Shown here piece by piece: positions 7,009-28,033 of a stretch of 64,000 bases of DNA. The translations under genes were made by a program, and so were the position numbers. Numbering within the stretch: the stretch's first letter is position 1; each line of letters begins with the position of its first letter. Origin of the DNA: a bacterium (GTDB lineage: Bacteria > Joyebacterota > Joyebacteria > Joyebacterales > Joyebacteraceae); contig JALGZK010000008.1 in NCBI GenBank assembly GCA_025774935.1, positions 17,576 to 81,575 of the forward strand. The letters are read 5' to 3'. The notes below the pieces were generated by a model. It made no database searches. It saw only the letters and a list, made by a program, of their open reading frames with translations, and was not told the origin of the DNA.

Positions 7009-8364
7009 TTACCCCTTCGTCGCGATCGGCACGTCCTTCATCAGGAGGTACGGGAAGTAGTGGCTCCCGAAGAACCCCAACCGCCCGACGAGCTCGACGT
7101 CGCTCGAGATCTCGAGGAGGTTGTCCCTGAGGAGCTTGTAGATGTTCCCCGAGACCATCGTGTCCTTCACGCGACCGGTGACCTTCCCGCCATCGACCTT
7201 GAGGCCGTACGCGACGTTCCCGGCGAAGTCGCCCGCGGTGAGGTTGCTCATGAGGATGCCCATGATGCGGTCGACGATGACGCCGTCGTGGATGCCCGCC
7301 ACGAGCTCCTCGTGCGGCTTCTCCCCTCCCGCCATGACCCAGTTCGTGACCTCGGGAGCCGGGACCTTGCCCAGGTCCTTCGTGAGGACGAGCCTCTTCG
7401 CGCGGAGCGCGTTGCCGGTCCTCGGGAGGTCGAGCTTCTTCGCCGTCCGGAGGTCGGTGAGGAAGTTCCTGAGGACGCCGTTCTCGACCACGACGGTCGT
7501 CTGCATCGGCACGCCCTCGTCGTCGAACGGCGCCGTCTCGTAGCCACTCGCGAGGAGGCCGTCGTCCATGATCGTCACGCGCTCGTCGAAGACGGTCTCG
7601 CCGATCTTGCCCTGGAGCGGCGAGATCCCCCGGTCGACGATCGAGCCGGAGACGCCGAGGTAGAGCGTCATGAACACGTCGGCCACGGCCCGCGGCGTGA
7701 ACATGACCGTCGTCGATCCCGTCTTCGTTTCGACGTTCTTGCGCCCGAGCTTGAACTGCTGGATGACGTCGTGGACCAGCGCCTCCGGCTTGGCGTCGAC
7801 GACCGTCGAACCGTAGTAGCCGCCGCCGTCGAGCATGTTCGTTCCCTCGATGAGCCGGCCGCCCAGGTAGTGCTTGTAGAGCGTGCGCTTGTACGTCGCG
7901 TCGAACCCCGCAGACGTCGCGACCCGGATCTCCTGAAGGTCGAGGAACGTGCCGCCCTCGGCGTTGATCTCGCCCTCGTAGTCGAGTATCTGCGCGATCT
8001 CGGCCTCGGTCTGCGAGATCGCGGTGTCGATGTCGAACTCCCTCACCTCTCCGCTCGCGGCGCAGACGTCCGGGAGCTCCGCCGCGCCCGCGAAGTCGAA
8101 CGCGGCCTTCTCGCCGTGCGCCGACGTCGCGATCGCGTCGTCGACGATGCGGTCGGTGTCCTCGAGCTTCGTGCTCGTCGCGAGCCCGACCTTCCCGTCC
8201 TTCACGAGCCTGAGCGCGGCCCCTCTCTCCTCCGTGCGCGAGACCCCCTTGAGCCTCCCGGTCTCGAAGTCGACCGACGTGCGGAGCGAGTTCAGGAAGA
8301 AGACCTCGCAGCCCGAGGCGCCCTTCGCCATCGCCTTCTCGATGATCTCCCTCACGTTACTCAC
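7009..8364 (-). CDS. pmbA: PmbA/TldE-family metalloprotease component
   Basis: 451 aa of the TldD/PmbA fold family, lacking HExxxH. It overlaps the upstream tldD by 8 nt. Confidence 0.85.
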   Translation of the reverse strand: MSNVREIIEKAMAKGASGCEVFFLNSLRTSVDFETGRLKGVSRTEERGAALRLVKDGKVGLATSTKLEDTDRIVDDAIATSAHGEKAAFDFAGAAELPDVCAASGEVREFDIDTAISQTEAEIAQILDYEGEINAEGGTFLDLQEIRVATSAGFDATYKRTLYKHYLGGRLIEGTNMLDGGGYYGSTVVDAKPEALVHDVIQQFKLGRKNVETKTGSTTVMFTPRAVADVFMTLYLGVSGSIVDRGISPLQGKIGETVFDERVTIMDDGLLASGYETAPFDDEGVPMQTTVVVENGVLRNFLTDLRTAKKLDLPRTGNALRAKRLVLTKDLGKVPAPEVTNWVMAGGEKPHEELVAGIHDGVIVDRIMGILMSNLTAGDFAGNVAYGLKVDGGKVTGRVKDTMVSGNIYKLLRDNLLEISSDVELVGRLGFFGSHYFPYLLMKDVPIATKG

Positions 8365-9727
8365 CTCCGATCACGACGTTCTGGATTCTGACGTGGGGCG
8401 ACTCGTGGCTCGTCTGGAGCGGGAACTGCCCCGCCTTGCCGCAGCCGCCCGGGCCGTCGTGCGGCCGCCGGTCATTCGCGATCATGTCGATGTTCTCCAG
8501 CGTGACGAAGACGTTCCCGGTGAGCGTCACGTCCCGAACCATCTCGGCGATCTTCCCGTCCCTGATCATGTAGGCGTTCGCCGCGGTGAACGTGAACATC
8601 TCGCCGTTCGTCTGTCCGCCCTGCGCGGAGATCGCGTAGACGCCGAGCTCGATGTCCGCGAGCATGTCCTCGAAGCTGCACGTCCCGTTCTCGATGCACG
8701 TGTTCCGCATGCGGCAGACCGGCTCGAACCGGTAGTCGATCGCGCGCGCGTTCCCGGTCGGCTGCTCCCCCATCTTCCCCGCGGTCTCGCGGGAGTGGAG
8801 ACGCCCCACGAGCGCGCCCTCGCGGATGAGGTAGGTCTTCTCCGTCGGGACGCCCTCGTCGTCGTAGACGAGGTAGCCGCGGAGCCCCTTGTCGAGTCCG
8901 GAGTCGTAGACGTTCAGGATCGGCCGCCCGAACTGGCGGCCGAGCGTCATGACCTCCTGGAGGTTCTTGTCCTCGTAGACGTTGTCGCCCTCCGAGAGGT
9001 GGCCGAAGGCCTCGTGGATGAACGTCCCGCCGAGCCTCGGGTCGAGGATGACGGTGTACTCGCCGCCCTTCACCTTCGGGGCGTCGAGCTTCCCGAGCGT
9101 GATCTCGGCGACCTCGTCGATCTTGCCCTCGAGGCCGAGGGCGACGCCGAAGTCGTCGCTCGACCCGAACGGAACACCGAAGTACTGAGAGTCGCCGTCC
9201 TTCGCGGCGATCGGCGCCACCACCCCTCCGAGGTCGATCCTCTCCTGGTAGACGAGGCTCCCCTCCGAGTTCGCGAACCAGAACTTGCGGTTCCGGTCGA
9301 AGTAACGGGTCGACGTGCTCACGATGCGCTCGTCGTACCCGAGCGCCTGCTCGTTGTAGGCCTTCAGGATCTCGACCTTCTTCTCGAGCGGAACCTCGCG
9401 CGGGTCGTTCTTGAGATCGAGGAGGACGTCGTCCCGCACGGGATCGACCGGCGCGAGCTCGCTCGTCTCCGCGCCCACGAGCTTCGCCTGGTCGATCGCG
9501 TTCTGCGCGAACTCCTCGATGCGGTCGAGGCTGTTGAACGACGCGAACCCCCATCCGCCCTTGTAGAGAGCCCGTACGTTCCCCCCGAAGTCGACCTTCC
9601 TCCCGAGGTCCTCGAGCCTGGGGCCGCTGAACGTGACCCTGGACTCCTCGGTCTCCTCGACGTGCGCCTCGAGGTAGTCGCACTGCGAGGCGAACTTCTT
9701 GACGACCTGTTCCAGTCGGTCCTTCAT
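8357..9727 (-). CDS. tldD: TldD-family metalloprotease
   Basis: 456 aa with the HEAFGH motif (GGTFIHEAFGHLSEGD) and a C-terminal GxC...GG region typical of TldD. Confidence 0.9.
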   Translation of the reverse strand: MKDRLEQVVKKFASQCDYLEAHVEETEESRVTFSGPRLEDLGRKVDFGGNVRALYKGGWGFASFNSLDRIEEFAQNAIDQAKLVGAETSELAPVDPVRDDVLLDLKNDPREVPLEKKVEILKAYNEQALGYDERIVSTSTRYFDRNRKFWFANSEGSLVYQERIDLGGVVAPIAAKDGDSQYFGVPFGSSDDFGVALGLEGKIDEVAEITLGKLDAPKVKGGEYTVILDPRLGGTFIHEAFGHLSEGDNVYEDKNLQEVMTLGRQFGRPILNVYDSGLDKGLRGYLVYDDEGVPTEKTYLIREGALVGRLHSRETAGKMGEQPTGNARAIDYRFEPVCRMRNTCIENGTCSFEDMLADIELGVYAISAQGGQTNGEMFTFTAANAYMIRDGKIAEMVRDVTLTGNVFVTLENIDMIANDRRPHDGPGGCGKAGQFPLQTSHESPHVRIQNVVIGGE

Positions 9728-17308: not shown

Positions 17309-18169
17309 TCAGTACTCGCCGAGCGTGCCCGCGCGCCTCGCGTGGCGATATCCCCACCCGAGCGTGAGGAGCCCGGCCACGAGCGCGGCCGATGCCGTGA
17401 GACCGAGGAGGACGAGCGGACGGACGAGGGACGCCGGGTCGTGGTATCCGGAGAGACCGGCGCGGGCGACGCGGAGGGCGTGCGTGGTGGGAATGAGGGC
17501 GGAGAGCCCCCGGAGCCACGGCGGGAGGATGTCGACTGGGAAGTAGACGCCGCCCAGGAGGCCGGCCGCCGCGCCGAACACCCACGAGACGGGCTCGCCT
17601 TCCTTGGAGACAAGGATGACTCCCGCTGAGACGAGCCCGAAGCCGCACATCGCCGCCGCGTAGAGCACGACGGCCGCCACCGCGGCCAGCGAGAGGCAGA
17701 GCCGAACATCGAGAACGGCCGAGGCGAGAGCCAGAAGCGCCGCTCCTCCCGCGCCTGCGATCGCGAGTTCGCCGAGCCCCGACAGAACCAGGAGCGCCGG
17801 GACCGGGACGCGCGACGTCACGAGGAGCTCGAGCGTACCCTGAAGCTGCTCCCTTCTCACGGTCGCGCGGAACGACGACAGCCCGGCGGCGGCGATGCCG
17901 TGGACGATGACGCCGACGATCACGAACGACGTGTAGCTCGTCCCGTACCGGTCGAGGAACCCGCTGCCGGCGGCGTCGACGACGCGGCCCACGAACGAGA
18001 AAGTGACGAGCGAGAGGACGAGCGACGCGAGCCCGAGCGAGAGCTTCGCCCGGTAGCTCGCGTAGGTCGCAGCGCTCCTGACGACGAACGCCCACGCGAC
18101 GCGGAGGACGGCCGCGAGGGTGGAACCTCTCCAGAGGGCGAGCGCGTCGCCGTGCCCGGCGGCGCTCAC
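17309..18169 (-). CDS. ABC-2-type transporter permease
   Basis: The GTG start at 18169 overlaps the ATPase stop (GTGA). The ~286-aa product has about six hydrophobic helices. Confidence 0.8.
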   Translation of the reverse strand: MSAAGHGDALALWRGSTLAAVLRVAWAFVVRSAATYASYRAKLSLGLASLVLSLVTFSFVGRVVDAAGSGFLDRYGTSYTSFVIVGVIVHGIAAAGLSSFRATVRREQLQGTLELLVTSRVPVPALLVLSGLGELAIAGAGGAALLALASAVLDVRLCLSLAAVAAVVLYAAAMCGFGLVSAGVILVSKEGEPVSWVFGAAAGLLGGVYFPVDILPPWLRGLSALIPTTHALRVARAGLSGYHDPASLVRPLVLLGLTASAALVAGLLTLGWGYRHARRAGTLGEY

Positions 18170-18831
18170 GACCGCATCCCGCTGCCGATGCGGACGACGC
18201 TGTCGCAGCTGGAAGCCTCGGCGAGATCGTGCGTCGCGAGGAGGACCGTGCCGCCGCGCGCTGCCCATCGTGCGAACGCGCGCCGGAGGAGCGTCCGGCC
18301 ATGCGCGTCGACCGACGCGAACGGTTCGTCGAGAACGAGGATCCGGGGCCGAGCGATCATCGCCCGCGCGACCGACAGCCGGGCGAGCGCTCCCCGCGAC
18401 AGCCTCCTCGTGGGCACGCCGAGGCACGCGACGAGTCCGAGCTCGTCGGCCACGCTCTCGATCGCGAGCGCGATCCTCTTTCTCGGGACGTTTTCGAGAG
18501 TCGCGAAGAAAGCGAGGTTGTGGCGCGCCGTGAGCCGCCAGTAGAACGACCGCTTGGTGCCGAGGGAGACGCCGATCATCCTGCGAACGTGCAGGGACTC
18601 CGAGACGACGTTGTGCCCCGCCACCATCGCGAGACCCTCGGTCGGCTCCACGAGCGTCGCGACGATTTTGAGCGCGGTGGTCTTACCGGCGCCGTTCGGT
18701 CCGACGAGCGCCGAGGTCTCACCCGCACCGACGGATAGAGAGAAGGGCGCCAGCGCTTCGGCGGGGCGCCCGCTCTTGCGGTAGACCTTGCGGACGTCCT
18801 CGAGCCTGACCGCGTCGGCGCTGCGGCTCAC
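18166..18831 (-). CDS. ABC transporter ATP-binding protein
   Basis: The GTG start at 18831 overlaps the FG-GAP stop (GTGA). It has Walker A GPNGAGKTT, signature LSRGALARL and Walker B ILVLDEP. Confidence 0.9.
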   Translation of the reverse strand: MSRSADAVRLEDVRKVYRKSGRPAEALAPFSLSVGAGETSALVGPNGAGKTTALKIVATLVEPTEGLAMVAGHNVVSESLHVRRMIGVSLGTKRSFYWRLTARHNLAFFATLENVPRKRIALAIESVADELGLVACLGVPTRRLSRGALARLSVARAMIARPRILVLDEPFASVDAHGRTLLRRAFARWAARGGTVLLATHDLAEASSCDSVVRIGSGMRS

Positions 18832-20249
18832 GAGCCCTCCCCGGCCGTGCGGACGGTCAACCCCGTCGACCAGACGCCCACCCGGCCCTCCCGGAGAGAC
18901 GCGACCACGATCTCCAACCGCCCGTCGCCGTCGAGATCGACGACCGCCACGCCGCCCGAGCCTCCCGCACCGGGCAGGCCCAGCACGTCGACCACGGTCC
19001 CGTCCGCGCCGTCGACCACGAAGACGCGGTCCTTCACGTACGCGACGAGCGCCGAGGCCGCCCCCCCGCCGCTCCCGTACCGCGGCAGTCCGACGGGAAC
19101 GCACCGCTCGACGATCTTGCCGTCCACGTCGAGCCGCCAGAGCTCGCTCCCGGTGCGCGGGTTCCACGCGTACAGGAACCCGTCGCTGCATCCGAAGACG
19201 AGCTCTCGCCCGGGCCCGTCCCGGAGGTCGGCGTCGGCCATGGCGATGACCGGCTCTCCCGTCCGCGCGAGCACCTCCTTCATGCCGCAGGGCACGTCGT
19301 TCCGGGCGACGTGCGCTGCGTGGGACTCCGCGCCGAACGGCACCGTGCGCGCGAGCATCTCCCCGGTCGCTCCATCGAGAAGCACGACCGCCCCTGCGAA
19401 GCACCCGACCGCCACTTCGCGAGCGCCGTCGCCGAGAAGATCGGCGACCACCGGATCGCTGCTCGCGGCGCCTTCGGGGACGAGCGTCCCCTTCTCGCCG
19501 AGGACCGTCCGCCAGAGCGGCTCGCCCGAGGGGGCGAAGCACGCGAGGACGTTCATGTTCTCGACGACGAGCACCTCGTCGAGACCGTCACCGTCGACGT
19601 CCTCGAGCACCGGGCGGCTGAAGCCGTTGTCGAACCGGCCCTCGGCGGCCGCCGCCTCGTTCGTCCAGAGCTCGAGAGACCCGATGACGCCGGCCCCGGC
19701 GCCGTCGCGCATCCCCGCGCCGGACAGCGCGACCAGCGTCTCGTTCCGCTCCTCCCCGACCGTACACACGACGTCCGGGACGCCGTCGCCGTCCAGGAGC
19801 CCGACGGCGATCTCGCCGGCGACCCCGGGCAACCGTTGCTCGGACATCACGTTCCCGCTCGCACCGTCGAGAACGAGGAGCTCGTCCCCGACCGCGGCCA
19901 GGATCTCCGCGCGCCCGTCCGCGTCGAGATCTGCGACGTCGACCACCGCGCGTGTTGCGAATTCCCTGCGCCAGATCTCGACGCCGTCCGCGCCCACGAG
20001 CACTAGATCGCTCGGTTCCTGCCTGCAGCGCCTGACGACGAGGAGATCGACGCCGTCCGAGGCGAACCGCCCCAGCGTGACGACGGTGACCCCGCGGGCG
20101 GGCAGCCCGAGGGGCGTCTCCCGCACGAGCTCGCACGGCGGGAGCCGTAAGGACGAGGCCGCCGCGGCACTCCCCACGGGCGCACCGCCCGCCGCCCCCG
20201 CGGCGACCGCGACCGCCAGGACCGCCTGAACCAGTCTCGCGCGTCTCAT
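18828..20249 (-). CDS. Secreted FG-GAP/VCBS-type beta-propeller repeat protein
   Basis: I trimmed the start to ATG 20249 (SD GGAGGAGGGAG), giving the signal MRRARLVQAVLAVAVAAGAAGGA. It has repeated Ca-binding-like DxDxDG motifs: DLDADGRAEIL, LLDGDGVPDVV, DVDGDGLDEVLV, DLLGDGAREVAV and DLDGDGRLEIVV. Confidence 0.8.
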   Translation of the reverse strand: MRRARLVQAVLAVAVAAGAAGGAPVGSAAAASSLRLPPCELVRETPLGLPARGVTVVTLGRFASDGVDLLVVRRCRQEPSDLVLVGADGVEIWRREFATRAVVDVADLDADGRAEILAAVGDELLVLDGASGNVMSEQRLPGVAGEIAVGLLDGDGVPDVVCTVGEERNETLVALSGAGMRDGAGAGVIGSLELWTNEAAAAEGRFDNGFSRPVLEDVDGDGLDEVLVVENMNVLACFAPSGEPLWRTVLGEKGTLVPEGAASSDPVVADLLGDGAREVAVGCFAGAVVLLDGATGEMLARTVPFGAESHAAHVARNDVPCGMKEVLARTGEPVIAMADADLRDGPGRELVFGCSDGFLYAWNPRTGSELWRLDVDGKIVERCVPVGLPRYGSGGGAASALVAYVKDRVFVVDGADGTVVDVLGLPGAGGSGGVAVVDLDGDGRLEIVVASLREGRVGVWSTGLTVRTAGEGS

Positions 20250-20284: not shown

Positions 20285-20455
20285 TCAGTAGTCGAGGTGA
20301 CAGAGGTCGTCGGAAGCGCACCCGGTGACGTCGGACCCGCAGTAGTCGACCGCGCTGCATCCTCCCCAGTCGATGAAGACGCGGCAGATCTCCGTGCCCC
20401 CGGTCCGCCCGGCGCCGCGCCGCGCGACCCCGTTCACCTGCTCGAGATGTCTCAT
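20285..20455 (-). CDS. Putative RiPP precursor peptide P3 (56 aa, 5 Cys)
   Basis: ATG at 20455 is preceded by GGAGAGGGG. Translation: MRHLEQVNGVARRGAGRTGGTEICRVFIDWGGCSAVDYCGSDVTGCASDDLCHLDY. It is a paralogue of P1 and P2. Confidence 0.7.
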   Translation of the reverse strand: MRHLEQVNGVARRGAGRTGGTEICRVFIDWGGCSAVDYCGSDVTGCASDDLCHLDY

Positions 20456-20488: not shown

Positions 20489-20662
20489 CTAGTAGTCGAT
20501 CAGACAGATGTCGTCGTGGCTGCAGTCCGCGAAGTCGAACGCGCACTGATCGATGCTGTCGCAGTCGCCCCAGTCGATGAAGATGTAGCAGGCGAACGGG
20601 ACGCTCGCCATCTGCGTCGTTCCCGTCTCCCGCCCCCCGTTCGCGAGCCTGAGATGCTTCAA
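20489..20662 (-). CDS. Putative RiPP precursor peptide P2 (57 aa, 5 Cys)
   Basis: TTG at 20662 lies 8 nt after GGAGG. Translation: MKHLRLANGGRETGTTQMASVPFACYIFIDWGDCDSIDQCAFDFADCSHDDICLIDY. In the track it is hidden in the tail of shadow ORF 20489..21118. Confidence 0.7.
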   Translation of the reverse strand: MKHLRLANGGRETGTTQMASVPFACYIFIDWGDCDSIDQCAFDFADCSHDDICLIDY

Positions 20663-20700: not shown

Positions 20701-20880
20701 TCACGTCGTGTCGACGATGCACCCGTCGTGACTGACGCAATCGCTCTCGAAGTCCAGCAACCAGCAGGTGTCCGACACCGCACATCCCGAGTAGTCGACC
20801 AGGCACAGGTCGCGCTTGGAGCGGCCGGCAGTCGGCCCGCCCCCCGGACCCCTGCCGTTCGCAAGCCTCAGGTGCTTCAC
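20701..20880 (-). CDS. Putative RiPP precursor peptide P1 (59 aa, 5 Cys)
   Basis: GTG at 20880 is preceded by GGAGGGGAGGTGG. Translation: MKHLRLANGRGPGGGPTAGRSKRDLCLVDYSGCAVSDTCWLLDFESDCVSHDGCIVDTT. In the track it is hidden in the tail of shadow ORF 20701..21204. Confidence 0.7.
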   Translation of the reverse strand: MKHLRLANGRGPGGGPTAGRSKRDLCLVDYSGCAVSDTCWLLDFESDCVSHDGCIVDTT

Positions 20881-20921: not shown

Positions 20922-23426
20922 TCACCTCCGCGCACGTGACGTCCGCGACTCGCGCCCTGTCGCGATCTCCGGCCTGGCGCTTCCTCTGGCCGCCGCCGCG
21001 AGCGCGCTCCGCTGCTCGTCCGGAAGCGACGCGTAGATCCACATCGAGAGCTCGAAGATCCTCCGCTTGAGCCTGCACCGCGGGGAGTCCGGGCCGACCG
21101 CGTCCGGTCCGACGGCATCCGGCCCGGCGGCGTCCGCGCCGGCCGCCTCGAGGTCGTGCACGCAGGGGCCGCCGCAGAGGTGGACGGCCCAACAGCCGGC
21201 GCATACGTTCACTGCATCTCGGAACCTGCGGAGGATGTTGCCGACCCTCTCGCGGTCCAGACCGCGCTCCACGTCCCCCACCGCGAACCCCGGGTTTCCG
21301 GCGAACCGGTGGCAGAACGAGAGGGCGCCGGAGGGATCGACCGAGACGTACCTCGTCCCCGCGCCGCAGGGCGTCCGCCGGCGCGCACCGGTCTCGAGTG
21401 CGAGTACCGTCTCGGTGAAGTTGCCCGTCGACGGCCGGTCCCCACGCGCGACGGCAGCGAGCTCTCCCTCCGCGAGCTCCTCGAACTCCAGCGCGAGTCG
21501 GTCAGCGAACTCCCGGCTCATCGCGGCGCCGCTCACTGGAGCGAAGTGGACGACGTACAACCCGAGACCGCGAAGGTGCTCCGCGATCTCCGCGAGCGGC
21601 CGCGAGTCCGGCGTGACCGTCGCCCGGGCGCCGACTCTCATCCCTACAGGGAGCTCCCTCAGGTTGCGGACGATCGTGTCGTACGATCCGGTGCCGTCAC
21701 GGAAGACGCGATGGGCGTCGTGCTCCGCGGCACCCCCGTCGACGCTCACAAGAGCGCGCACGCCACTTCCGTGAAGGAACGAAGCGTTCTCCGGCGTAAG
21801 GAGCGTCCCGTTCGTCGTCATGTGGAAGGAGACGGAGCGGCCCTCGGCTCCCGCGCGCCGCCTCGCGTAGTCGACGATCTCTCCGATGAGCGCGGGCTCG
21901 AGGAGCGGCTCCCCGCCGAAGAACACGATCGAGACGCGGGCCTCGCCCGCCGACTCGGAGAGAAGGAGGTCGACGGCGCGGAACGCAGTCGTCCTAGACA
22001 TGCTCGAACCGTCGCGGGCTCCGGGCCTGCCCTCGCGCACGCGTCCCCCCGACGAGAGGTAGCAGTAGTCGCAGCTCAGGTTGCAGCTGTCGGTGAGGCC
22101 GAGGGCGACGGCGGTCAGACCGGACGAGGCTCCGGCCGCGGCCCAGGCGTCGCACGGAGACCTGAGGTCCCCCGGACCGCTCCCCTTCGGCCACGGCTCC
22201 GGGCGCGCGAGCGCCCGGAGCTCACCCAGGACCTCGCCCACGACGTTCTTCCCCGCGTTCATGTTGAGCACGCCGAGCCCGCCGGGATCAGAGCCGGCTC
22301 GGAGCCACTCGACAACGTCCAGGACCGCGGCGTCGGCCTCGAAGAAGAGCCCCGAGTCGACGTCCAGCACGAGACCCCGACTGCGGACCTCGAACGCGTG
22401 GACCTTCCGGGCGAGCTCGGGAGGAACGCGTGCGTCTCGGGTGGGCACGGCCGGCGCGGCGTTCCCCGAAGCGGCCGCGGTCACCGATACGCGTCGCGTG
22501 ACCCATCCGAGCCTCTCCCTCGACTCGTCCCGCCGACGCTCGAGGTGGGAGGCGAGCCCCTCGGCCCCGAAGGCCAGCGCCGCCTCGGCCGCCATCGCGT
22601 AGTGACGGTCGATCTCGCCGGCGACGAGCGCGAGCGTCGCCGCTCCCGCCTGCGAGAGGAGGACGTCCCCCACCCGGCTCGCGGGCGGCGGTTCTTCGAG
22701 GCGCGCCGCGGCGGCGAGCAGCCACGACGGTACGGACCACCGTCCCGCCTCCAGGTCGGCCTCGAGATCCTCGAGGTCGTCCGCGAGCTGGTAGGCGGTG
22801 TGGAACCTGTCGATCACGCTCTCCATCGCGGGAAGCGCGTCGTTCCTCCCGGACAGCGCGGCGACCGCAGCGGGGCACACCTTGAGCGGCGACATCCCAC
22901 GGCCGAGCATCTCGAGCGTCGCGGGAAGCGCGCCCCCCGAGACCGCGTCCCGCCCCTCCGGTGACTCGAGGACCTCCTTCCGCCACTCGAGGCTGGCGAA
23001 ATACTCGCGCAGATACCCCACGAGCGGCTCGACGAAGGAGAAGGCGAACGAGCCGTCCCCGCGGAAGAGCCTCCCGTACTCGAGCATGAAGAGGATCAGC
23101 GAGCGGTCGGAGAGACAGCAGTCCGACGGCGAGGGCCGAGCGTCGCCGTCCATCTCGTCGTCCTGCGCGAGGAAGTGGGCCGCGCCGAACGCGTTCCCGA
23201 GTGCCATGGTCCTCGCGGCGTCGAGAGCGCCCTCGAACGGAAGGGCCTCCGCGAGGAAGAACGGAAGCCTGAGAACGAAGTTGTCCCTCGTGATCCCGCG
23301 CTCGAACGCCGGCGCCCCGGCGGAACCGGAGAGCTCCGGCATGGCGGATCTGAAGCCGATCGCAACGCGGCGCAGTTCGGCGCGGTGGTCGATCGCCGAC
23401 GAGATCGCTTCCGTGGTCGAGCGCAT
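20922..23426 (-). CDS. Radical SAM/SPASM peptide maturase fused to an N-terminal isoprenoid-synthase-like (two DDxxD) domain
   Basis: 834 aa with CxxxCxxC (TDSCNLSCDYC, residues 448-455). The full SPASM pattern is present: CGAGTRYVSVDPSGALSFC, then CAGCWAVHLCGGPC, then a final C. The N-terminal ~330 aa carry FLAQDDEMDGD (res 85-95) and YQLADDLEDLEAD (res 212-224). The start codon is uncertain because no clear SD is present. Confidence 0.88.
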   Translation of the reverse strand: MRSTTEAISSAIDHRAELRRVAIGFRSAMPELSGSAGAPAFERGITRDNFVLRLPFFLAEALPFEGALDAARTMALGNAFGAAHFLAQDDEMDGDARPSPSDCCLSDRSLILFMLEYGRLFRGDGSFAFSFVEPLVGYLREYFASLEWRKEVLESPEGRDAVSGGALPATLEMLGRGMSPLKVCPAAVAALSGRNDALPAMESVIDRFHTAYQLADDLEDLEADLEAGRWSVPSWLLAAAARLEEPPPASRVGDVLLSQAGAATLALVAGEIDRHYAMAAEAALAFGAEGLASHLERRRDESRERLGWVTRRVSVTAAASGNAAPAVPTRDARVPPELARKVHAFEVRSRGLVLDVDSGLFFEADAAVLDVVEWLRAGSDPGGLGVLNMNAGKNVVGEVLGELRALARPEPWPKGSGPGDLRSPCDAWAAAGASSGLTAVALGLTDSCNLSCDYCYLSSGGRVREGRPGARDGSSMSRTTAFRAVDLLLSESAGEARVSIVFFGGEPLLEPALIGEIVDYARRRAGAEGRSVSFHMTTNGTLLTPENASFLHGSGVRALVSVDGGAAEHDAHRVFRDGTGSYDTIVRNLRELPVGMRVGARATVTPDSRPLAEIAEHLRGLGLYVVHFAPVSGAAMSREFADRLALEFEELAEGELAAVARGDRPSTGNFTETVLALETGARRRTPCGAGTRYVSVDPSGALSFCHRFAGNPGFAVGDVERGLDRERVGNILRRFRDAVNVCAGCWAVHLCGGPCVHDLEAAGADAAGPDAVGPDAVGPDSPRCRLKRRIFELSMWIYASLPDEQRSALAAAARGSARPEIATGRESRTSRARR

Positions 23427-23978: not shown

Positions 23979-23994
23979 CGCATAGGTCGTGCCA
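23979..23994 (-). promoter_or_regulatory. Candidate sigma-54 promoter A
   Basis: The minus strand reads TGGCACG-ACCT-ATGCG. The -24 element is perfect and the -12 element has the conserved GC but flanking mismatches. It lies ~555 nt upstream of ATG 23426. Confidence 0.4.
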
Positions 23995-24373: not shown

Positions 24374-27300
24374 CTACCCGAGACCGTACTTCTTCATCTT
24401 CGCGTGGAGGCCGGTCCTCGAGAGACCGAGGACGTCGGCCGCCGCCTGCTTGTTCCAGCCGGTCCGGGAGAGCGCTTCCAGGATGCGGCTCTTCTCGAGC
24501 GCCTCGACCTCGTTCTTGAGCGAGCGGCGGTGCGGCTCTTCGTCGCCCAGGGTGATCTCATAGCGGTTCCGGAGCTCCGGGCTGATCTTGTCGATCCCGA
24601 TCATCTCCCCGTCGGCGGCCAGCGCGACGCCGCGCCGCACTTCGTTCTCGAGCTCCCTCACGTTGTTCCCGCGCCAGTCGTACCGCTGGAAGATCTCGCG
24701 GACCTCGCGGCTGAACCCGGGGATGTGCTTCCCCTCGCGCTTCGCGTAGAGCTCGCGGAAGTGCTCCATGAGGACCGGGACGTCGTCCGGGCGGTCGCGG
24801 AGAGGCGGCACCTGGATCACGACCGCGCAGAGGCGGTAGAAGAGGTCGCGCCTGAACCGCCCGGCCTTGACCTCCTCCGCCAGGTCCTTGTTGCTCGCGG
24901 AGATGACGCGCGCGTCGCTCGTCCTCGTGACGCTCTCCCCCACCCGGCGGTACTCGCCGTTCTGGAGGAACCGGAGGAGCTTCACCTGGAGCTGCTGGCT
25001 CATCTCGCCGATCTCGTCGAGGAAGAGCGTTCCGCCGGCCGCGGCCTGCACGAGGCCCTCGCGGTCGCGGTCCGCGTCGGTGAACGCGCCCTTCACATGA
25101 CCGAAGAGCTCGCTCTCCTGCAGGTTCGGAGGGATCGCACCCGCGTTCAGCGCGACGAACTTCCCCGTCCGGCTGCGGCCGTCGACGTGGACGGCGCGCG
25201 CGATGAGTTCCTTACCGGTCCCGGACTCGCCGCGGATGACGATCGGGACGTGGCTGTCCTTTAGGCGGTCGATGCTCGAGAGGATGCGCAGCATCTCCGC
25301 GTCGCGGGTGATGAGGCCCGCGTGGTTCGGCGAGTCGCCGAGCTCCTGTGCGAGCTCCCCGTTCTCCCTCCACGCGACCGACTCGCCGACCCTGGAGAAC
25401 GCGAGGCCGAGCATCCGCGACGCTGCGGCGACGAACTCGACGTCACTCTGCGTGAACGGCGCGGGCCGCTCGGACTTCATCCGGTCGGCGTAGAGCAGAT
25501 AAGTCGTGCCGCGCGCACCGCTGATCTCGGCGGGAATGAGGGCCACGGCGCCGACGCCCGGCGCGAAGTAGGCGTCCGCGGAGCGCGGGTCGCTCACGAT
25601 GAGCGGCCTCGTGTGTCCGCGGTTCCCGACGGTCGTGCGCACGAAGCGGGTGACCTCGGCCACCCCGCGTCCCGTGCGGTCGACCGACGTGGCGACGGCG
25701 GGACCGGTCTCCTCCGTGAGCGAGTAGAGGACCAGGCGGTTGGCCGGGACCGACGCCGCGATCTCGTTCGCGAACTCGTTCAGGTCCTCCGGCTTCGGCT
25801 CGGTCGTCTCGAGGAACCGGTACCCCTCGGCGATCGTGGAGTAGCGTCCCTGGCGCGAGACGCCGGCCTCCTCGAGCTCCGCGTCGAGCTCCTTCAGGAT
25901 GGCGTCGATCTCGGCGAGGCCCTCGCTGTCGTGGCTCACCTCCATCTTGAGGCGCGCCCGGTCGAGCCACGTCCTCGCCCGGTCGAGCTGGCCGCCACGC
26001 TGGAGTGCCTTGCCGCGCTCGAGCTCGCAGCGAGCCACCCAGTCGCCGGCGCCGATCCTCGTGAAGATGGCCTCGGCGGCGGAGAACCGCGCCTCGATCC
26101 TGTCCACGGGGAGGTCGCCCGGAGGCGACGAGTCGCGCATGCCGACGGCGTCGGCGAACGCGGTCTTGGCGGTCTGGAACGACTCGCCGGTCCTGCGAAG
26201 CATGTCCTCGGCGCGGTTCACGAGGACCTCGGCGGCGGTCCGCTCGCCCTTGGCGTAGCAGATGCTCGCGAGGACCCTCAGGAACGCCCCCTCCTCGAGC
26301 CTGTCGCCCAGCTCGCGGGAGAGCTTCACGCCGTCCGAGCAGTCGCGCTCGGCGTCCTCGATCCTGCCGAGCGTGAGGAGCGCCTCGGCGCGCCTCCGGA
26401 GGACCTCCCCGACGACGTCGCCGTTCGAGGCGAGGCGGTACGCGCAGCCGAGCGCCCTGTCCAGCGTCGCGAGAGCCTGCTCGTACTCGCCCTGGTCCAT
26501 CTCCAGCTCGCCGATGTACTCGAGCGCGAGCGCCTCAGCCCTGAGATACCCCTTCTCCCTCGCCACGCGGAGCGCGTTCTCGAAGAGCTCGCGCGCCCGG
26601 CCCGTTTCGCGGCGTACGCGGTACACGTTCCCGAGCGCGGTCTTCGCGGCGACGAGTCCTCGGACGGCGCCGATCCGCGAGTACGTCTCCTTGGCCTCGG
26701 TGAGCATCTCCTCCGCTTCCGCCCATCGAGACAGGCGGTAGAGCGTGATGCCCACGTTCGTCAGGCGATCGGCGATCGCCATCGAACGCCCCTGCTTCCG
26801 GTCGAGCTCGAGCGCGCTCTCGAGGTACTCGAGGGCGCCGTTCAGGTCGCCGGTACGCTTGGCGAGAATGCCGAGGTTGTTGTAGGCCGCAGCGAGGCCT
26901 GACTCGCTCGCGAGCCTCTTCTGGGAGACGAGATAGTCGGTGAAGTAGTCCCTGGCGGCCTCGGTGTTCCCGATCTCGGCGTTCGCGATGCCGAGCATCT
27001 TGCCTGCCTCAGCCAGAAGATGGCTGTCGGGACTGGTCCTGAGTGCGTCGTACGCCTTCTGAGCCGCGCGCAGCGCTTCTTCGTAGCGCCCGCTCTCGAT
27101 CTCGATCCTCGCGAGGACGACGTTCGCCTCGGCCCACGACGTCGCTTCCTCGTCCTCGAGCTCCAGATCGTCGAGCTTCGCGCAGTGTGCTCTCGCCTTG
27201 ACGTAGTTGCCGAGCCCCAGGTGGCACTTCGCGATCCGGACGCAGAGCCCCGCTACCTCGTCGTCGGAGAGCGTGGAACCCAGCTCTTCGCCGGCGGCGC

Positions 27301-27466
27301 GGCTGAAGTACCCGAGCGCGTCCGTGTAGCTGTCGGACTCGAGATAGACGTCGCCGAGTCGGATCGCGGTCAGCGCGGCTTCCCGCGCGCTCCGCGACTC
27401 CATTGCTCGGCGAAACGCCTCGAGCATCTCGCGTTCGGGCTTATCGTCCGGTCGTCGTTCAGCCAC
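24374..27466 (-). CDS. TPR-repeat / GAF / sigma-54-interaction-domain transcriptional activator
   Basis: 1030 aa. The ~500-aa N-terminus is TPR-like repeats, followed by a GAF-like segment. The AAA+ domain has GESGTGKELIA, a variant GAFTDA loop and FLDEIGEM. The C-terminus has a Fis-type HTH (AADVLGLSRTGLHAKMKKYGL). Confidence 0.9.
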   Translation of the reverse strand: MAERRPDDKPEREMLEAFRRAMESRSAREAALTAIRLGDVYLESDSYTDALGYFSRAAGEELGSTLSDDEVAGLCVRIAKCHLGLGNYVKARAHCAKLDDLELEDEEATSWAEANVVLARIEIESGRYEEALRAAQKAYDALRTSPDSHLLAEAGKMLGIANAEIGNTEAARDYFTDYLVSQKRLASESGLAAAYNNLGILAKRTGDLNGALEYLESALELDRKQGRSMAIADRLTNVGITLYRLSRWAEAEEMLTEAKETYSRIGAVRGLVAAKTALGNVYRVRRETGRARELFENALRVAREKGYLRAEALALEYIGELEMDQGEYEQALATLDRALGCAYRLASNGDVVGEVLRRRAEALLTLGRIEDAERDCSDGVKLSRELGDRLEEGAFLRVLASICYAKGERTAAEVLVNRAEDMLRRTGESFQTAKTAFADAVGMRDSSPPGDLPVDRIEARFSAAEAIFTRIGAGDWVARCELERGKALQRGGQLDRARTWLDRARLKMEVSHDSEGLAEIDAILKELDAELEEAGVSRQGRYSTIAEGYRFLETTEPKPEDLNEFANEIAASVPANRLVLYSLTEETGPAVATSVDRTGRGVAEVTRFVRTTVGNRGHTRPLIVSDPRSADAYFAPGVGAVALIPAEISGARGTTYLLYADRMKSERPAPFTQSDVEFVAAASRMLGLAFSRVGESVAWRENGELAQELGDSPNHAGLITRDAEMLRILSSIDRLKDSHVPIVIRGESGTGKELIARAVHVDGRSRTGKFVALNAGAIPPNLQESELFGHVKGAFTDADRDREGLVQAAAGGTLFLDEIGEMSQQLQVKLLRFLQNGEYRRVGESVTRTSDARVISASNKDLAEEVKAGRFRRDLFYRLCAVVIQVPPLRDRPDDVPVLMEHFRELYAKREGKHIPGFSREVREIFQRYDWRGNNVRELENEVRRGVALAADGEMIGIDKISPELRNRYEITLGDEEPHRRSLKNEVEALEKSRILEALSRTGWNKQAAADVLGLSRTGLHAKMKKYGLG

Positions 27467-27526: not shown

Positions 27527-27880
27527 CTAGTACAGAGTGGCGAGAATGTACTTCAGGTGCGTGAACGCGAAGCGGAGCTGCGCGTACATCGACGCGAGCC
27601 TCAGCTTCCGTCCCGTGACGTTCCCGTCTCCTTCGCCCTCGCCGTCTTCCTCGGGAGGCTCAGGGACGTCGCCTTCGTCCTCGTCGCCCCCAGGGTTGTT
27701 GTGGCCCCAGCGATCGTCGTCGCCTTCGTCACCGTCGTCCCTGAGCGCGACCTGGCCGCATGCGCCAGAGCCGTTCCAGGAATTCCGGTATGCGCTCCTC
27801 GCCGAACTCGTCGTTGCCGTCAGCAAGACCAAGCCCAGCACGAGGACCACAAGCAGAGCAAGGGTGCGCCTCTTCATCAT
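27527..27880 (-). CDS. Small secreted, highly acidic hypothetical protein
   Basis: ATGATG at 27880/27877 lies 7 nt after AGGAGG. It has the signal MMKRRTLALLVVLVLGLVLLTATTSSA, a D/E/G-rich middle and an amphipathic C-terminus LRLASMYAQLRFAFTHLKYILATLY. I recognised no family. Confidence 0.55.
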   Translation of the reverse strand: MMKRRTLALLVVLVLGLVLLTATTSSARSAYRNSWNGSGACGQVALRDDGDEGDDDRWGHNNPGGDEDEGDVPEPPEEDGEGEGDGNVTGRKLRLASMYAQLRFAFTHLKYILATLY

Positions 27881-28033
27881 CGGGGTCCCTCCTTGTGGCC
27901 TGCCCTCTCGGGTCATCCTCCACGATTCGAATCTGTGCCGCCGGGAGTTCGCGTCATAGATACTCGCCCGGCGGCGAGTGACGCTGGTACTAGGGGGGTA
28001 TCCGGTGGGAAGGCCGGGGAGCCTTCCAACGTC

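Follow-up and report, generated by a model that had tools for sequence, protein, structure and literature searches.

The window analysed here (64,000 nt of contig JALGZK010000008.1, assembly GCA_025774935.1, from the bacterial lineage Joyebacterota; all positions are those of this whole stretch) encodes an 834-aa radical S-adenosylmethionine (SAM) maturase whose N-terminal ~320 residues are kin to the peptide prenyltransferases PalQ and ComQ, so that this one protein probably both cross-links and lipidates three precursor peptides encoded next to it. We lean towards the view that the maturase is a bifunctional enzyme making prenylated ranthipeptides, predicted to be an active peptide prenyltransferase as well as a thioether synthase. 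Each half of the protein is of a known kind, and the novelty lies in the joining of the two and in the class of product predicted from it. A literature search, with the primary paper on the two-domain enzyme ChrPC (PMC11484575) and the Hubrich 2026 review outside its scope, found no description of a ranthipeptide or radical SAM enzyme fused to a ComQ- or PalQ-type prenyltransferase.

By Pfam, NCBIfam and structural modelling, the C-terminal half of the protein carries a CX3CX2C motif, a SPASM domain and a leader-peptide recognition element (RRE), as PapB-type maturases do. Over the full 834 aa, Pfam detected just Radical_SAM (residues 444-592), Fer4_12 and a weak SPASM match, and a motif scan located the sole CX3CX2C at residues 448-455 (bases 22062-22085). 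The SPASM region is spanned by the NCBIfam models of PapB, QhpD and the SCIFF maturases, and the top NCBIfam models for the maturase are those of the PapB ranthipeptide maturase (257 bits) and of QhpD (252 bits over residues 341-766). The score of 257 bits lies below the cut-off of 340 of the PapB equivalog NF047865, and by these sequence models the radical SAM half is kin to PapB yet not a PapB equivalog. The best match of residues 331-834 among solved structures is the thioether-forming SCIFF maturase CteB (E 1e-42), with the CteB RRE included in the aligned part. Since the QhpD and SCIFF-maturase hidden Markov models (HMMs) and the CteB alignment all begin at about residue 341, residues 1-330 constitute an extra N-terminal module. 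The initial annotation had likewise set residues 1-330 ahead of a peptide-binding and radical SAM core, and the RRE indeed follows in the full-length model as three strands (residues 342-364) and three helices (residues 366-406); its boundary at base 22436 is corrected here to 22437, the last base of codon 330. PapB (which makes freyrasin), QhpD and CteB thus match the C-terminal 500 residues, and the C-x2-4-D repeats of the precursors are as in freyrasin and in the QhpC gamma subunit, but the window maturase stays below every NCBIfam equivalog cut-off. We know of no N-terminal isoprenoid-synthase-fold domain in PapB, QhpD or CteB.

The full-length AlphaFold model of the maturase (mean predicted local distance difference test score, pLDDT, 87; predicted template-modelling score, pTM, 0.89) implies, given this pTM, that the domains are packed in a fixed, defined arrangement. 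Foldseek searches with this model matched the C-terminal half to CteB (template-modelling score, TM, 0.82-0.85) and the N-terminal domain to IspB. Public gene calls start the protein at M29 (806 aa, P0003). Orthologues keep residues from ~14-17 onwards (E17, R19, V21) and the model has a helix at residues 14-28; because these precede M29, the ATG at 23426, at the head of the region 23343-23426 (-), is the more likely start.

The N-terminal domain falls in no curated family at the sequence level. With residues 1-330, Pfam gave solely a sub-threshold match to PF00348 (residues 186-225; 10.9 bits, where the cut-off is 27; E 0.26), and neither NCBIfam nor a phmmer search of PDB sequences returned a match. 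The AlphaFold2 model of residues 1-330, for which a 59-sequence alignment (A2) served as input, is all-helical (pLDDT 91, pTM 0.90), and when Foldseek compared it with the PDB, each of the 50 top matches had a trans-isoprenyl diphosphate synthase (trans-IPPS) fold. E. coli IspB (TM 0.62-0.68) and further polyprenyl synthases are among them, as are MoeN5 and Ord1, two prenyltransferases that do not elongate chains. When the A2 profile was searched against PDB sequences, the best matches were again mostly trans-IPPSs (top match 3oyr, E 1.3e-4), and its alignment with GGPPS (PDB identifier 6sxl) places the Lys of an S-P-L-K motif on the 'KT' region of IPPSs and Q-L-x-D-D-x-x-D on FQxxDDxxD, in register. 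A generic helical repeat or TPR-like domain was considered and rejected, as Foldseek returned IPPS folds exclusively. We are therefore confident that the domain has a trans-IPPS fold and belongs to a PalQ/ComQ-type family. The initial annotation had proposed a class-I isoprenoid-synthase or ComQ-type domain from the letters, had likened the surroundings of the second Asp motif to FQxxDDxxD and had named a Foldseek search with a model of residues 1-330 as a way to check the fold; the fold, the profile matches to PDB IPPSs, the register of that stretch and the PalQ-like relatives described below all agree with it. With IspB and GGPPS (PF00348) the domain shares the fold (TM ~0.6-0.68), Asp motifs that end long helices and the allylic-site Lys and Gln, but it lacks GKxxR and RRG, matches PF00348 below threshold and lies in a context of peptide maturation and not of isoprenoid metabolism.

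An exhaustive phmmer search of 1.84 billion representative proteins (E <= 1e-3) with the N-terminal domain gave 186 matches, in none of which the region is covered by a Pfam or NCBIfam model; a word-indexed search is nearly blind to this family, returning 2 and then 7 matches. The 186 relatives form four groups: ~16 proteins of ~800 aa with 40-48% identity, all with CX3CX2C; remoter ~760-aa fusions to radical SAM/SPASM, several of them without CX3CX2C; proteins of 1075-1117 aa with, in this order, a squalene-hopene-cyclase-like domain, the PalQ-like domain and radical SAM/SPASM; and ~100 standalone proteins of 300-335 aa.

The DDxxD motif occurs exactly twice in the 834-aa protein, as DDEMD at residues 89-93 (within GAAHFLAQDDEMDGD, also given as FLAQDDEMDGD) and as DDLED at residues 216-220 (within HTAYQLADDLEDLEAD; longer form YQLADDLEDLEAD). 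The two lie 127 residues apart, in accord with the spacing first read off the sequence. Shuffling residues 1-330 gave two DDxxD motifs in 0.14% of cases, and conservation is a stronger argument for the Asp motifs than this chance test. In 56 full-length fused orthologues, which are 42-77% identical to the window protein, D89, D93, K182, Q213, D216, D217, D220, D224 and R229 are invariant, as are the radical SAM cysteines. The nine remain near-invariant in the wider family of 155 members, where D93, D220 and D224 hardly ever change and >90% keep D89, D216, K182 and P55, while D217 and Q213 are invariant among the long (fused) members; K182 is present in 87 of 99 standalone members. Because of this pattern, and with D90 varying, the true motifs are D-x3-D and D-D-x2-D-x3-D. 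The motifs of the initial annotation are thus conserved among homologues, though not quite in the form given: D89 and D93 of the first DDxxD are invariant while D90 is not, leaving DxxxD, and all Asp residues of DDLED are invariant but belong to a longer motif, D216-D217-x2-D220-x3-D224.

In chain-elongating IPPSs, GKxxR and RRG bind isopentenyl diphosphate (IPP). The conserved Pro55 probably corresponds to the Pro of the IPPS GKxxRP motif, and in the family alignment Lys and Arg together make up 0-1% at each of the four positions before it; there is also no RRG after the first Asp motif. Since these basic IPP-binding residues are lost, the domain should not elongate chains.

PalQ of Paenibacillus alvei is a trans-IPPS-like ('trans-IDS-like') C-terminal Trp prenyltransferase acting on an NHLP-type RiPP (ribosomally produced, post-translationally modified peptide; Miyata et al. 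2024, PMC10853753). It has D89 and D93 in the first Asp-rich motif (FARM), D200 and D204 in the second (SARM) and Q197 near the indole NH; it needs a terminal Trp, and its D200A/D204A mutant is still active (PMC10853753). In crystal structures of StheQ, D85, D89 (with D91), K174 and Q212 hold Mg2+ and diphosphate, and a pseudo-SARM begins three residues past Q212 (bioRxiv 10.64898/2026.08.29.745113). A Gln three residues before the SARM has been implicated in indole recognition in PalQ and Ord1 (PMC10853753; PMC13290415). According to a 2026 review (PMC13290415), a Gln closely upstream of the SARM is common to ComQ, PalQ and the ChrPC P domain, the trans-IPPS-like peptide prenyltransferases characterised so far modify Trp exclusively, and PalQ and ChrPC have no InterPro entry. 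D89/D93/K182/Q213 of the window domain correspond to D85/D89/K174/Q212 of StheQ, with D89/D93/Q197/D200/D204 as the PalQ counterparts; in sequence terms, D89, D93, K182, Q213, D216 and R229 appear to be the retained residues that hold Mg2+ and the allylic diphosphate in StheQ, PalQ and Ord1.

The window domain and PalQ are related at the profile level and have in common LP(F/Y)W, D-x3-D at positions 89 and 93, (A/S)P(L/V)K and Q-x2-D-D-x2-D, and both are without a covering Pfam or InterPro model. They differ in that PalQ is a standalone protein of ~310 aa acting on a terminal Trp, its paper being silent on radical SAM enzymes, whereas the window domain is fused to RRE and radical SAM/SPASM and its putative Trp acceptor lies inside a core rich in Cys and Asp; pairwise identity is ~20-30%. 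ComQ and StheQ, Trp geranyl- or farnesyltransferases of the ComX pheromone likened here by description, share the all-helical trans-IPPS fold and a first Asp motif, Lys and Gln that bind Mg2+ and prenyl diphosphate, the Gln being one turn ahead of the second motif; as predicted for the window domain, they modify a Trp that lies inside a ribosomal peptide or close to its end. However, they have a pseudo-SARM (NDxxx) where the window domain has a full DDxxDxxxD, and ComQ serves quorum sensing, unlike the cross-linking maturase of the window. ChrPC (Hubrich et al. 2024, Chem), as described in the review (PMC13290415), joins a trans-IPPS-like prenyltransferase domain to a second tailoring domain for one RiPP and so offers a precedent for a P domain with a partner, but by that description alone its partner is a class II terpene cyclase, and that of the window domain is RRE with radical SAM/SPASM.

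The fusion recurs well beyond the window. A genome scan found 27 loci, all in metagenome-assembled genomes (MAGs) of uncultured bacteria, many of them labelled Candidatus Eisenbacteria, the closest being 79% identical; every complete maturase gene among them is fused (800-970 aa) and has CX3CX2C. Likewise, the radical SAM half has ~95 homologue clusters at >=43% identity, all of which are fused (~775-870 aa) where the contig could hold the whole gene, the shorter matches at this identity coming from short contigs or frameshift-ridden assemblies. Homologues at <=39% identity are unfused (~470-490 aa), and the one whose surroundings were checked is part of a quinohemoprotein amine dehydrogenase (Qhp) operon, beside the QhpC gamma-subunit gene. 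Over 55 orthologues, the N-terminal domain (44% identity to the window protein) is as conserved as the RRE (45%); the radical SAM core has 57%, SPASM 54% and the poorly conserved linker 16%. By these sequence comparisons the fusion of prenyltransferase and maturase is old and fixed, and it is coupled to a conserved substrate set. An assembly chimera was rejected, since the fusion recurs as one open frame in 27 independent genome loci. In two syntenic copies of the locus (L001 and L043), the maturase and a neighbouring sigma-54 activator are split into several open reading frames (ORFs), which probably reflects long-read frameshift errors and not pseudogenes.

The recurrence of the fusion also bears on the view that the N-terminal domain is an ordinary chain-elongating polyprenyl synthase or free-terpene synthase, joined to the maturase by chance or through an artefact of assembly or annotation. 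Its fold and two Asp motifs are those of trans-IPPSs, and one source labels related proteins 'class 1 isoprenoid biosynthesis enzyme'. However, the basic IPP-binding motifs are missing across the family, the PF00348 score is far under threshold, the fusion stands in one open frame in the 27 loci and ~95 protein clusters, and the family is consistently linked to RiPP clusters, and we regard this view as highly improbable.

The genes of the three precursors (P1, P2 and P3) lie directly downstream of the maturase gene on the same strand. Their products share the leader (M/V/L)-K/R-H-L-R/E-x-A/V-N-G and have five C-x2-4-D motifs in each core, and the Trp residues reported earlier are present in all three (CW in P1, IDW in P2 and P3). 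Loci with enough downstream sequence encode a type A precursor (consensus ...CLVDYSxCxxxDxCWLxDxxxxCxxxDxCIIDT.) and a type B precursor (consensus ...CYIFIDWGxCxxVDQCGFDFGxCxxxDVCLVDY), some with a third, so that two or three precursors with five Cys...Asp motifs follow the fused maturase throughout the clade. A leader-pattern scan found 51 precursors, all with a Trp: 24 of 24 of type A, from 24 loci, in the form CW, and 27 of 27 of type B/C in the form DWG. Tyr is also conserved in the cores, as VDYS in type A and as CY and a terminal DY in type B.

Based on these features, we propose that the RRE (residues 341-406) would bind the conserved precursor leader M-K-H-L-R-x-A-N-G, and that the radical SAM/SPASM half would form up to five Cys-to-Asp thioethers on the C-x2-4-D motifs, as PapB and QhpD do. 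The N-terminal domain would ionise dimethylallyl diphosphate (DMAPP), geranyl diphosphate or farnesyl diphosphate and add the prenyl cation to one of the electron-rich side chains of that core, for which the conserved Trp (type A, C-W; types B and C, I-D-W-G) is the likeliest candidate. The lipidated, cross-linked peptide may then exit via the adjacent ABC transporter. Gene and domain boundaries, fold, kinship with the PalQ family, residue conservation, the conserved fusion and the conserved Trp-containing precursors are computational findings; the catalytic activity, the order of the prenylation and cross-linking steps, the donor, the acceptor residue and the export are inferred.

Several observations weigh against such an active Trp prenyltransferase of the PalQ type. 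The sequences of PalQ (K4ZRG6) and three homologues used here were rebuilt from a machine-read alignment in the PalQ supplement and are noisy, with errors; the PalQ mutagenesis primers independently give LQMNDDWADWQT around the SARM. Direct phmmer comparison of the window domain with these sequences is weak (<=24 bits, with noisy, machine-read sequences), and a profile of the fused proteins only scores 26-35 bits against them. Since the direct match is weak, the link to PalQ rests on intermediates and profiles. In favour of the link, the A2 profile matches rebuilt PalQ with 127 bits over profile positions 1-249 (E 4e-35, Z = 1e6), and rebuilt PalQ matches P0062, P0115, P0134 and P0042 with 137-160 bits. 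All four come from Paenibacillus, measure 310-318 aa and are either called 'class 1 isoprenoid biosynthesis enzyme' or left as hypothetical; two of these, P0042 (E 1.2e-10) and P0062 (E 7.6e-8), are among the window domain's own matches in the 1.84-billion-protein library. Given the weak pairwise scores, the N-terminal domain is a distant member of the PalQ-containing family and not a close orthologue. In the long, fused members position 90 varies between R, G, D and K. Unlike the terminal Trp that PalQ needs, the precursor Trp lies within the core, between residues expected to be cross-linked. A Pfam scan of the cluster neighbours in the window found no isoprenoid-supply gene, and a search for idi found none in the 27 Eisenbacteria-type loci. 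One distant fused homologue (P0018, on a short metagenome contig, L037) does have such a gene: a type 1 IPP isomerase (L037:1-483 (+); NF002995, 124.7 bits, E 3e-36, product truncated) overlaps the start of the maturase gene by 19 nt, a direct hint of a need for DMAPP, but idi coupling was seen at this locus alone. The sole precursor visible there has Tyr and Phe and no Trp (...CSIVDFGSGCGEIDSCGVDYT), for which reason Trp is perhaps not the universal acceptor; the sister locus L038 has C-W precursors.

Some of these points would suit a domain that has become a degenerate, non-catalytic relic of a prenyltransferase, serving as a scaffold or second peptide-binding module that, for example, presents the core, or an intermediate already cross-linked, to the radical SAM site, with no prenyl transfer. 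The missing isoprenoid gene in the window cluster and the 27 orthologous loci, the loss of D90 of the canonical DDxxD in most fused orthologues and the L037 precursor without Trp are consistent with it. So is the second-motif region of ComQ, StheQ and PalQ, which serves peptide positioning and not metal binding (PMC10853753; PMC13290415; bioRxiv 10.64898/2026.08.29.745113). The confidently modelled fixed packing of the domain on the radical SAM half would suit a structural role too. However, nine residues that map to the Mg2+/diphosphate site are invariant in the 56 orthologues and kept in standalone relatives, where a scaffold would be expected to lose its acidic clusters, and an idi gene is coupled to one fused homologue. 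A leader-binding role, the alternative raised in the initial annotation, is also less needed because a dedicated, canonical RRE follows at residues 341-406, and a dedicated supply gene is not required since prenyl diphosphates occur in every bacterium. We thus consider a relic unlikely, though it is the likeliest of the alternatives.

The Tyr residues of the cores bear on a further possibility, that the domain is an active prenyl-diphosphate-ionising enzyme whose acceptor is not Trp (but Tyr, a carboxylate or a terminus), or that it acts on an attached isoprenoid like a class-I cyclase. Tyr is conserved in the cores of types A and B, the L037 precursor has Tyr and Phe but no Trp, and the Asp residues of D216-x3-D220-x3-D224 are spaced i, i+4, i+8 like the metal triad (NSE/DTE) of class-I terpene cyclases. 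This spacing is the sole cyclase-like trait of the window domain, in which Pfam found no Terpene_syn match; some distant relatives give weak matches to Terpene_syn_C_2 and have squalene-hopene-cyclase-like domains fused to them or encoded next to them. On the other hand, Foldseek puts IPPS-type proteins first, with no terpene cyclase in its top 50, the Gln associated with indole recognition is invariant, Trp is found in 51 of 51 precursors of the clade, and the characterised trans-IPPS-like peptide prenyltransferases are all Trp-specific (2026 review, PMC13290415). These make such an activity rather improbable, and Trp prenylation by an active N-terminal domain remains the reading that we prefer.

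Distant relatives of the N-terminal domain are also tied to radical SAM/SPASM RiPP clusters, as separate genes or as three-domain fusions. Standalone PalQ-like genes in a Chloroflexota MAG and in metagenome contigs (L029-L033) lie in a cluster of fixed composition, in which mostly an M50-like peptidase comes first, followed by the IPPS-like protein, one or two NHLP-like 'Frankia_peptide' precursors (...AVVGVSVSWP) and a radical SAM/SPASM enzyme; a squalene-hopene-cyclase-like protein comes next, then a B12-radical SAM enzyme and finally an ABC transporter. By analogy with ChrPC, this cluster may be a pathway to a cyclised prenyl-Trp peptide. Another standalone member comes after the end of a thioether-type radical SAM/SPASM gene. 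P0040 and P0031 adjoin an Rce1-like CPBP intramembrane protease and a large polyketide synthase, and the P0040 locus also holds a second radical SAM gene and a 53-aa peptide ending in ...CDSDWCLYG. The two-domain P0040 has the same neighbours as the three-domain P0031 (L040, L041); P0031, together with P0025 and P0036 (1075-1117 aa; L036), combines squalene-hopene-cyclase-like, PalQ-like and radical SAM/SPASM domains. Seven distant long homologues (P0021, P0027, P0028, P0030, P0032, P0033 and P0035) have no CX3CX2C; the C-terminal parts of P0021 and P0027 still match radical SAM/SPASM models, and this set may represent pseudo-radical-SAM partners.

To our knowledge, peptide prenylation by isoprenoid-synthase-fold enzymes is limited to a handful of cases (ComQ, PalQ, StheQ, ChrPC), and thioether ranthipeptides are known solely as unlipidated peptides. 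The joining of the two chemistries in one polypeptide predicts a class of lipidated, multiply cross-linked peptides. The larger proposal, that a working two-chemistry enzyme defines a new RiPP subclass of prenylated (lipidated) ranthipeptides widespread in Candidatus Eisenbacteria and that PalQ-like modules recur in radical SAM peptide pathways, stands in our judgement about evenly poised. If true, the occurrence of PalQ-like modules as separate genes and in two- and three-domain fusions would imply peptide-terpenoid hybrids far beyond ComX, PalX and ChrPC. The maturase may prenylate an internal Trp of a constrained peptide, which PalQ cannot do and which is wanted for peptide engineering, and one gene with a 57-aa precursor makes a compact system for co-expression. 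The ~186 homologues of the domain without a Pfam or NCBIfam model, labelled 'radical SAM protein' or 'hypothetical', also represent an annotation gap. The cluster itself represents a conserved locus for a specialised metabolite, which sigma-54 may control, in a phylum of which we know no cultured members.

Table 1. Coordinates in the window of the maturase gene, its domains and motifs, the precursor genes and the neighbouring genes
Feature	Position	Strand	Remarks
Whole maturase gene	20922..23426	(-)	834-aa ORF: PalQ-like prenyltransferase domain + RRE + radical SAM + SPASM
N-terminal trans-IPPS-fold (PalQ/ComQ-like) domain	22437..23426	(-)	residues 1-330, folded core ~14-319
First Asp motif D89-D-E-M-D93-G-D95 (FARM equivalent)	23142..23162	(-)	conserved part D89 and D93
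K182 in S-P-L-K motif, putative diphosphate-binding Lys	22881..22883	(-)	invariant in fused orthologues
Q213-L-A-D216-D217-L-E-D220-L-E-A-D224, Gln and second Asp motif (SARM equivalent)	22755..22790	(-)	invariant, 56 orthologues
RRE (leader-peptide recognition element)	22209..22406	(-)	residues 341-406; model and starts of CteB, QhpD and SCIFF-maturase alignments
Radical SAM core	21651..22097	(-)	residues 444-592; Pfam PF04055, E 1.8e-15
SPASM auxiliary-cluster domain	21147..21368	(-)	residues ~687-760; Pfam match weak
Precursor P1 (type A)	20701..20880	(-)	VKHLRLANG...CLVDYSGCAVSDTCWLLDFESDCVSHDGCIVDTT
Precursor P2 (type B)	20489..20662	(-)	LKHLRLANG...CYIFIDWGDCDSIDQCAFDFADCSHDDICLIDY
Precursor P3 (type C)	20285..20455	(-)	MRHLEQVNG...CRVFIDWGGCSAVDYCGSDVTGCASDDLCHLDY
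FG-GAP/PQQ-like beta-propeller protein	18828..20249	(-)	Pfam; N-terminal hydrophobic stretch, possible signal sequence; start estimated
ABC transporter ATPase	18166-18831	(-)	Pfam; start/stop codons overlap with neighbour
ABC-2 permease	17309-18169	(-)	Pfam; start/stop overlap with ATPase
Tetratricopeptide repeat (TPR) + sigma-54 AAA+ activator + Fis HTH	24374..27466	(-)	Pfam; directly upstream of maturase; syntenic in L001 and L043

Among the neighbouring genes (Table 1), the beta-propeller gene follows the precursors in the window and occupies the same position in L037, L038 and L043. The ABC ATPase and ABC-2 permease, a pair (17309..18831) that is syntenic in L043, are likely the exporter of the predicted product. 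No dedicated leader protease is evident in the window cluster. TldD/E process some RiPP leaders; a PmbA/TldD metalloprotease pair is present at 7009-9727 (-), ~11 kb from the cluster, and may be housekeeping.

The TPR/sigma-54 activator is a likely candidate for the regulator of the cluster. A sigma-54-like -24/-12 element (TGGCACGACCTATGCG, 23979-23994 (-)) is found ~550 nt upstream of the maturase ATG, within the 947-bp gap between activator and maturase, and the three closest loci (L002-L004) have near-identical elements between -642 and -666; a count of sigma-54 promoter motifs over the window gave no enrichment above chance. Between ArsR-type regulator/creatininase genes and the sigma-54 activator lies a 129-aa ORF (27527-27916 (-)) with no Pfam match; in L001 and in L043 its place is held by a gene of 115 aa.

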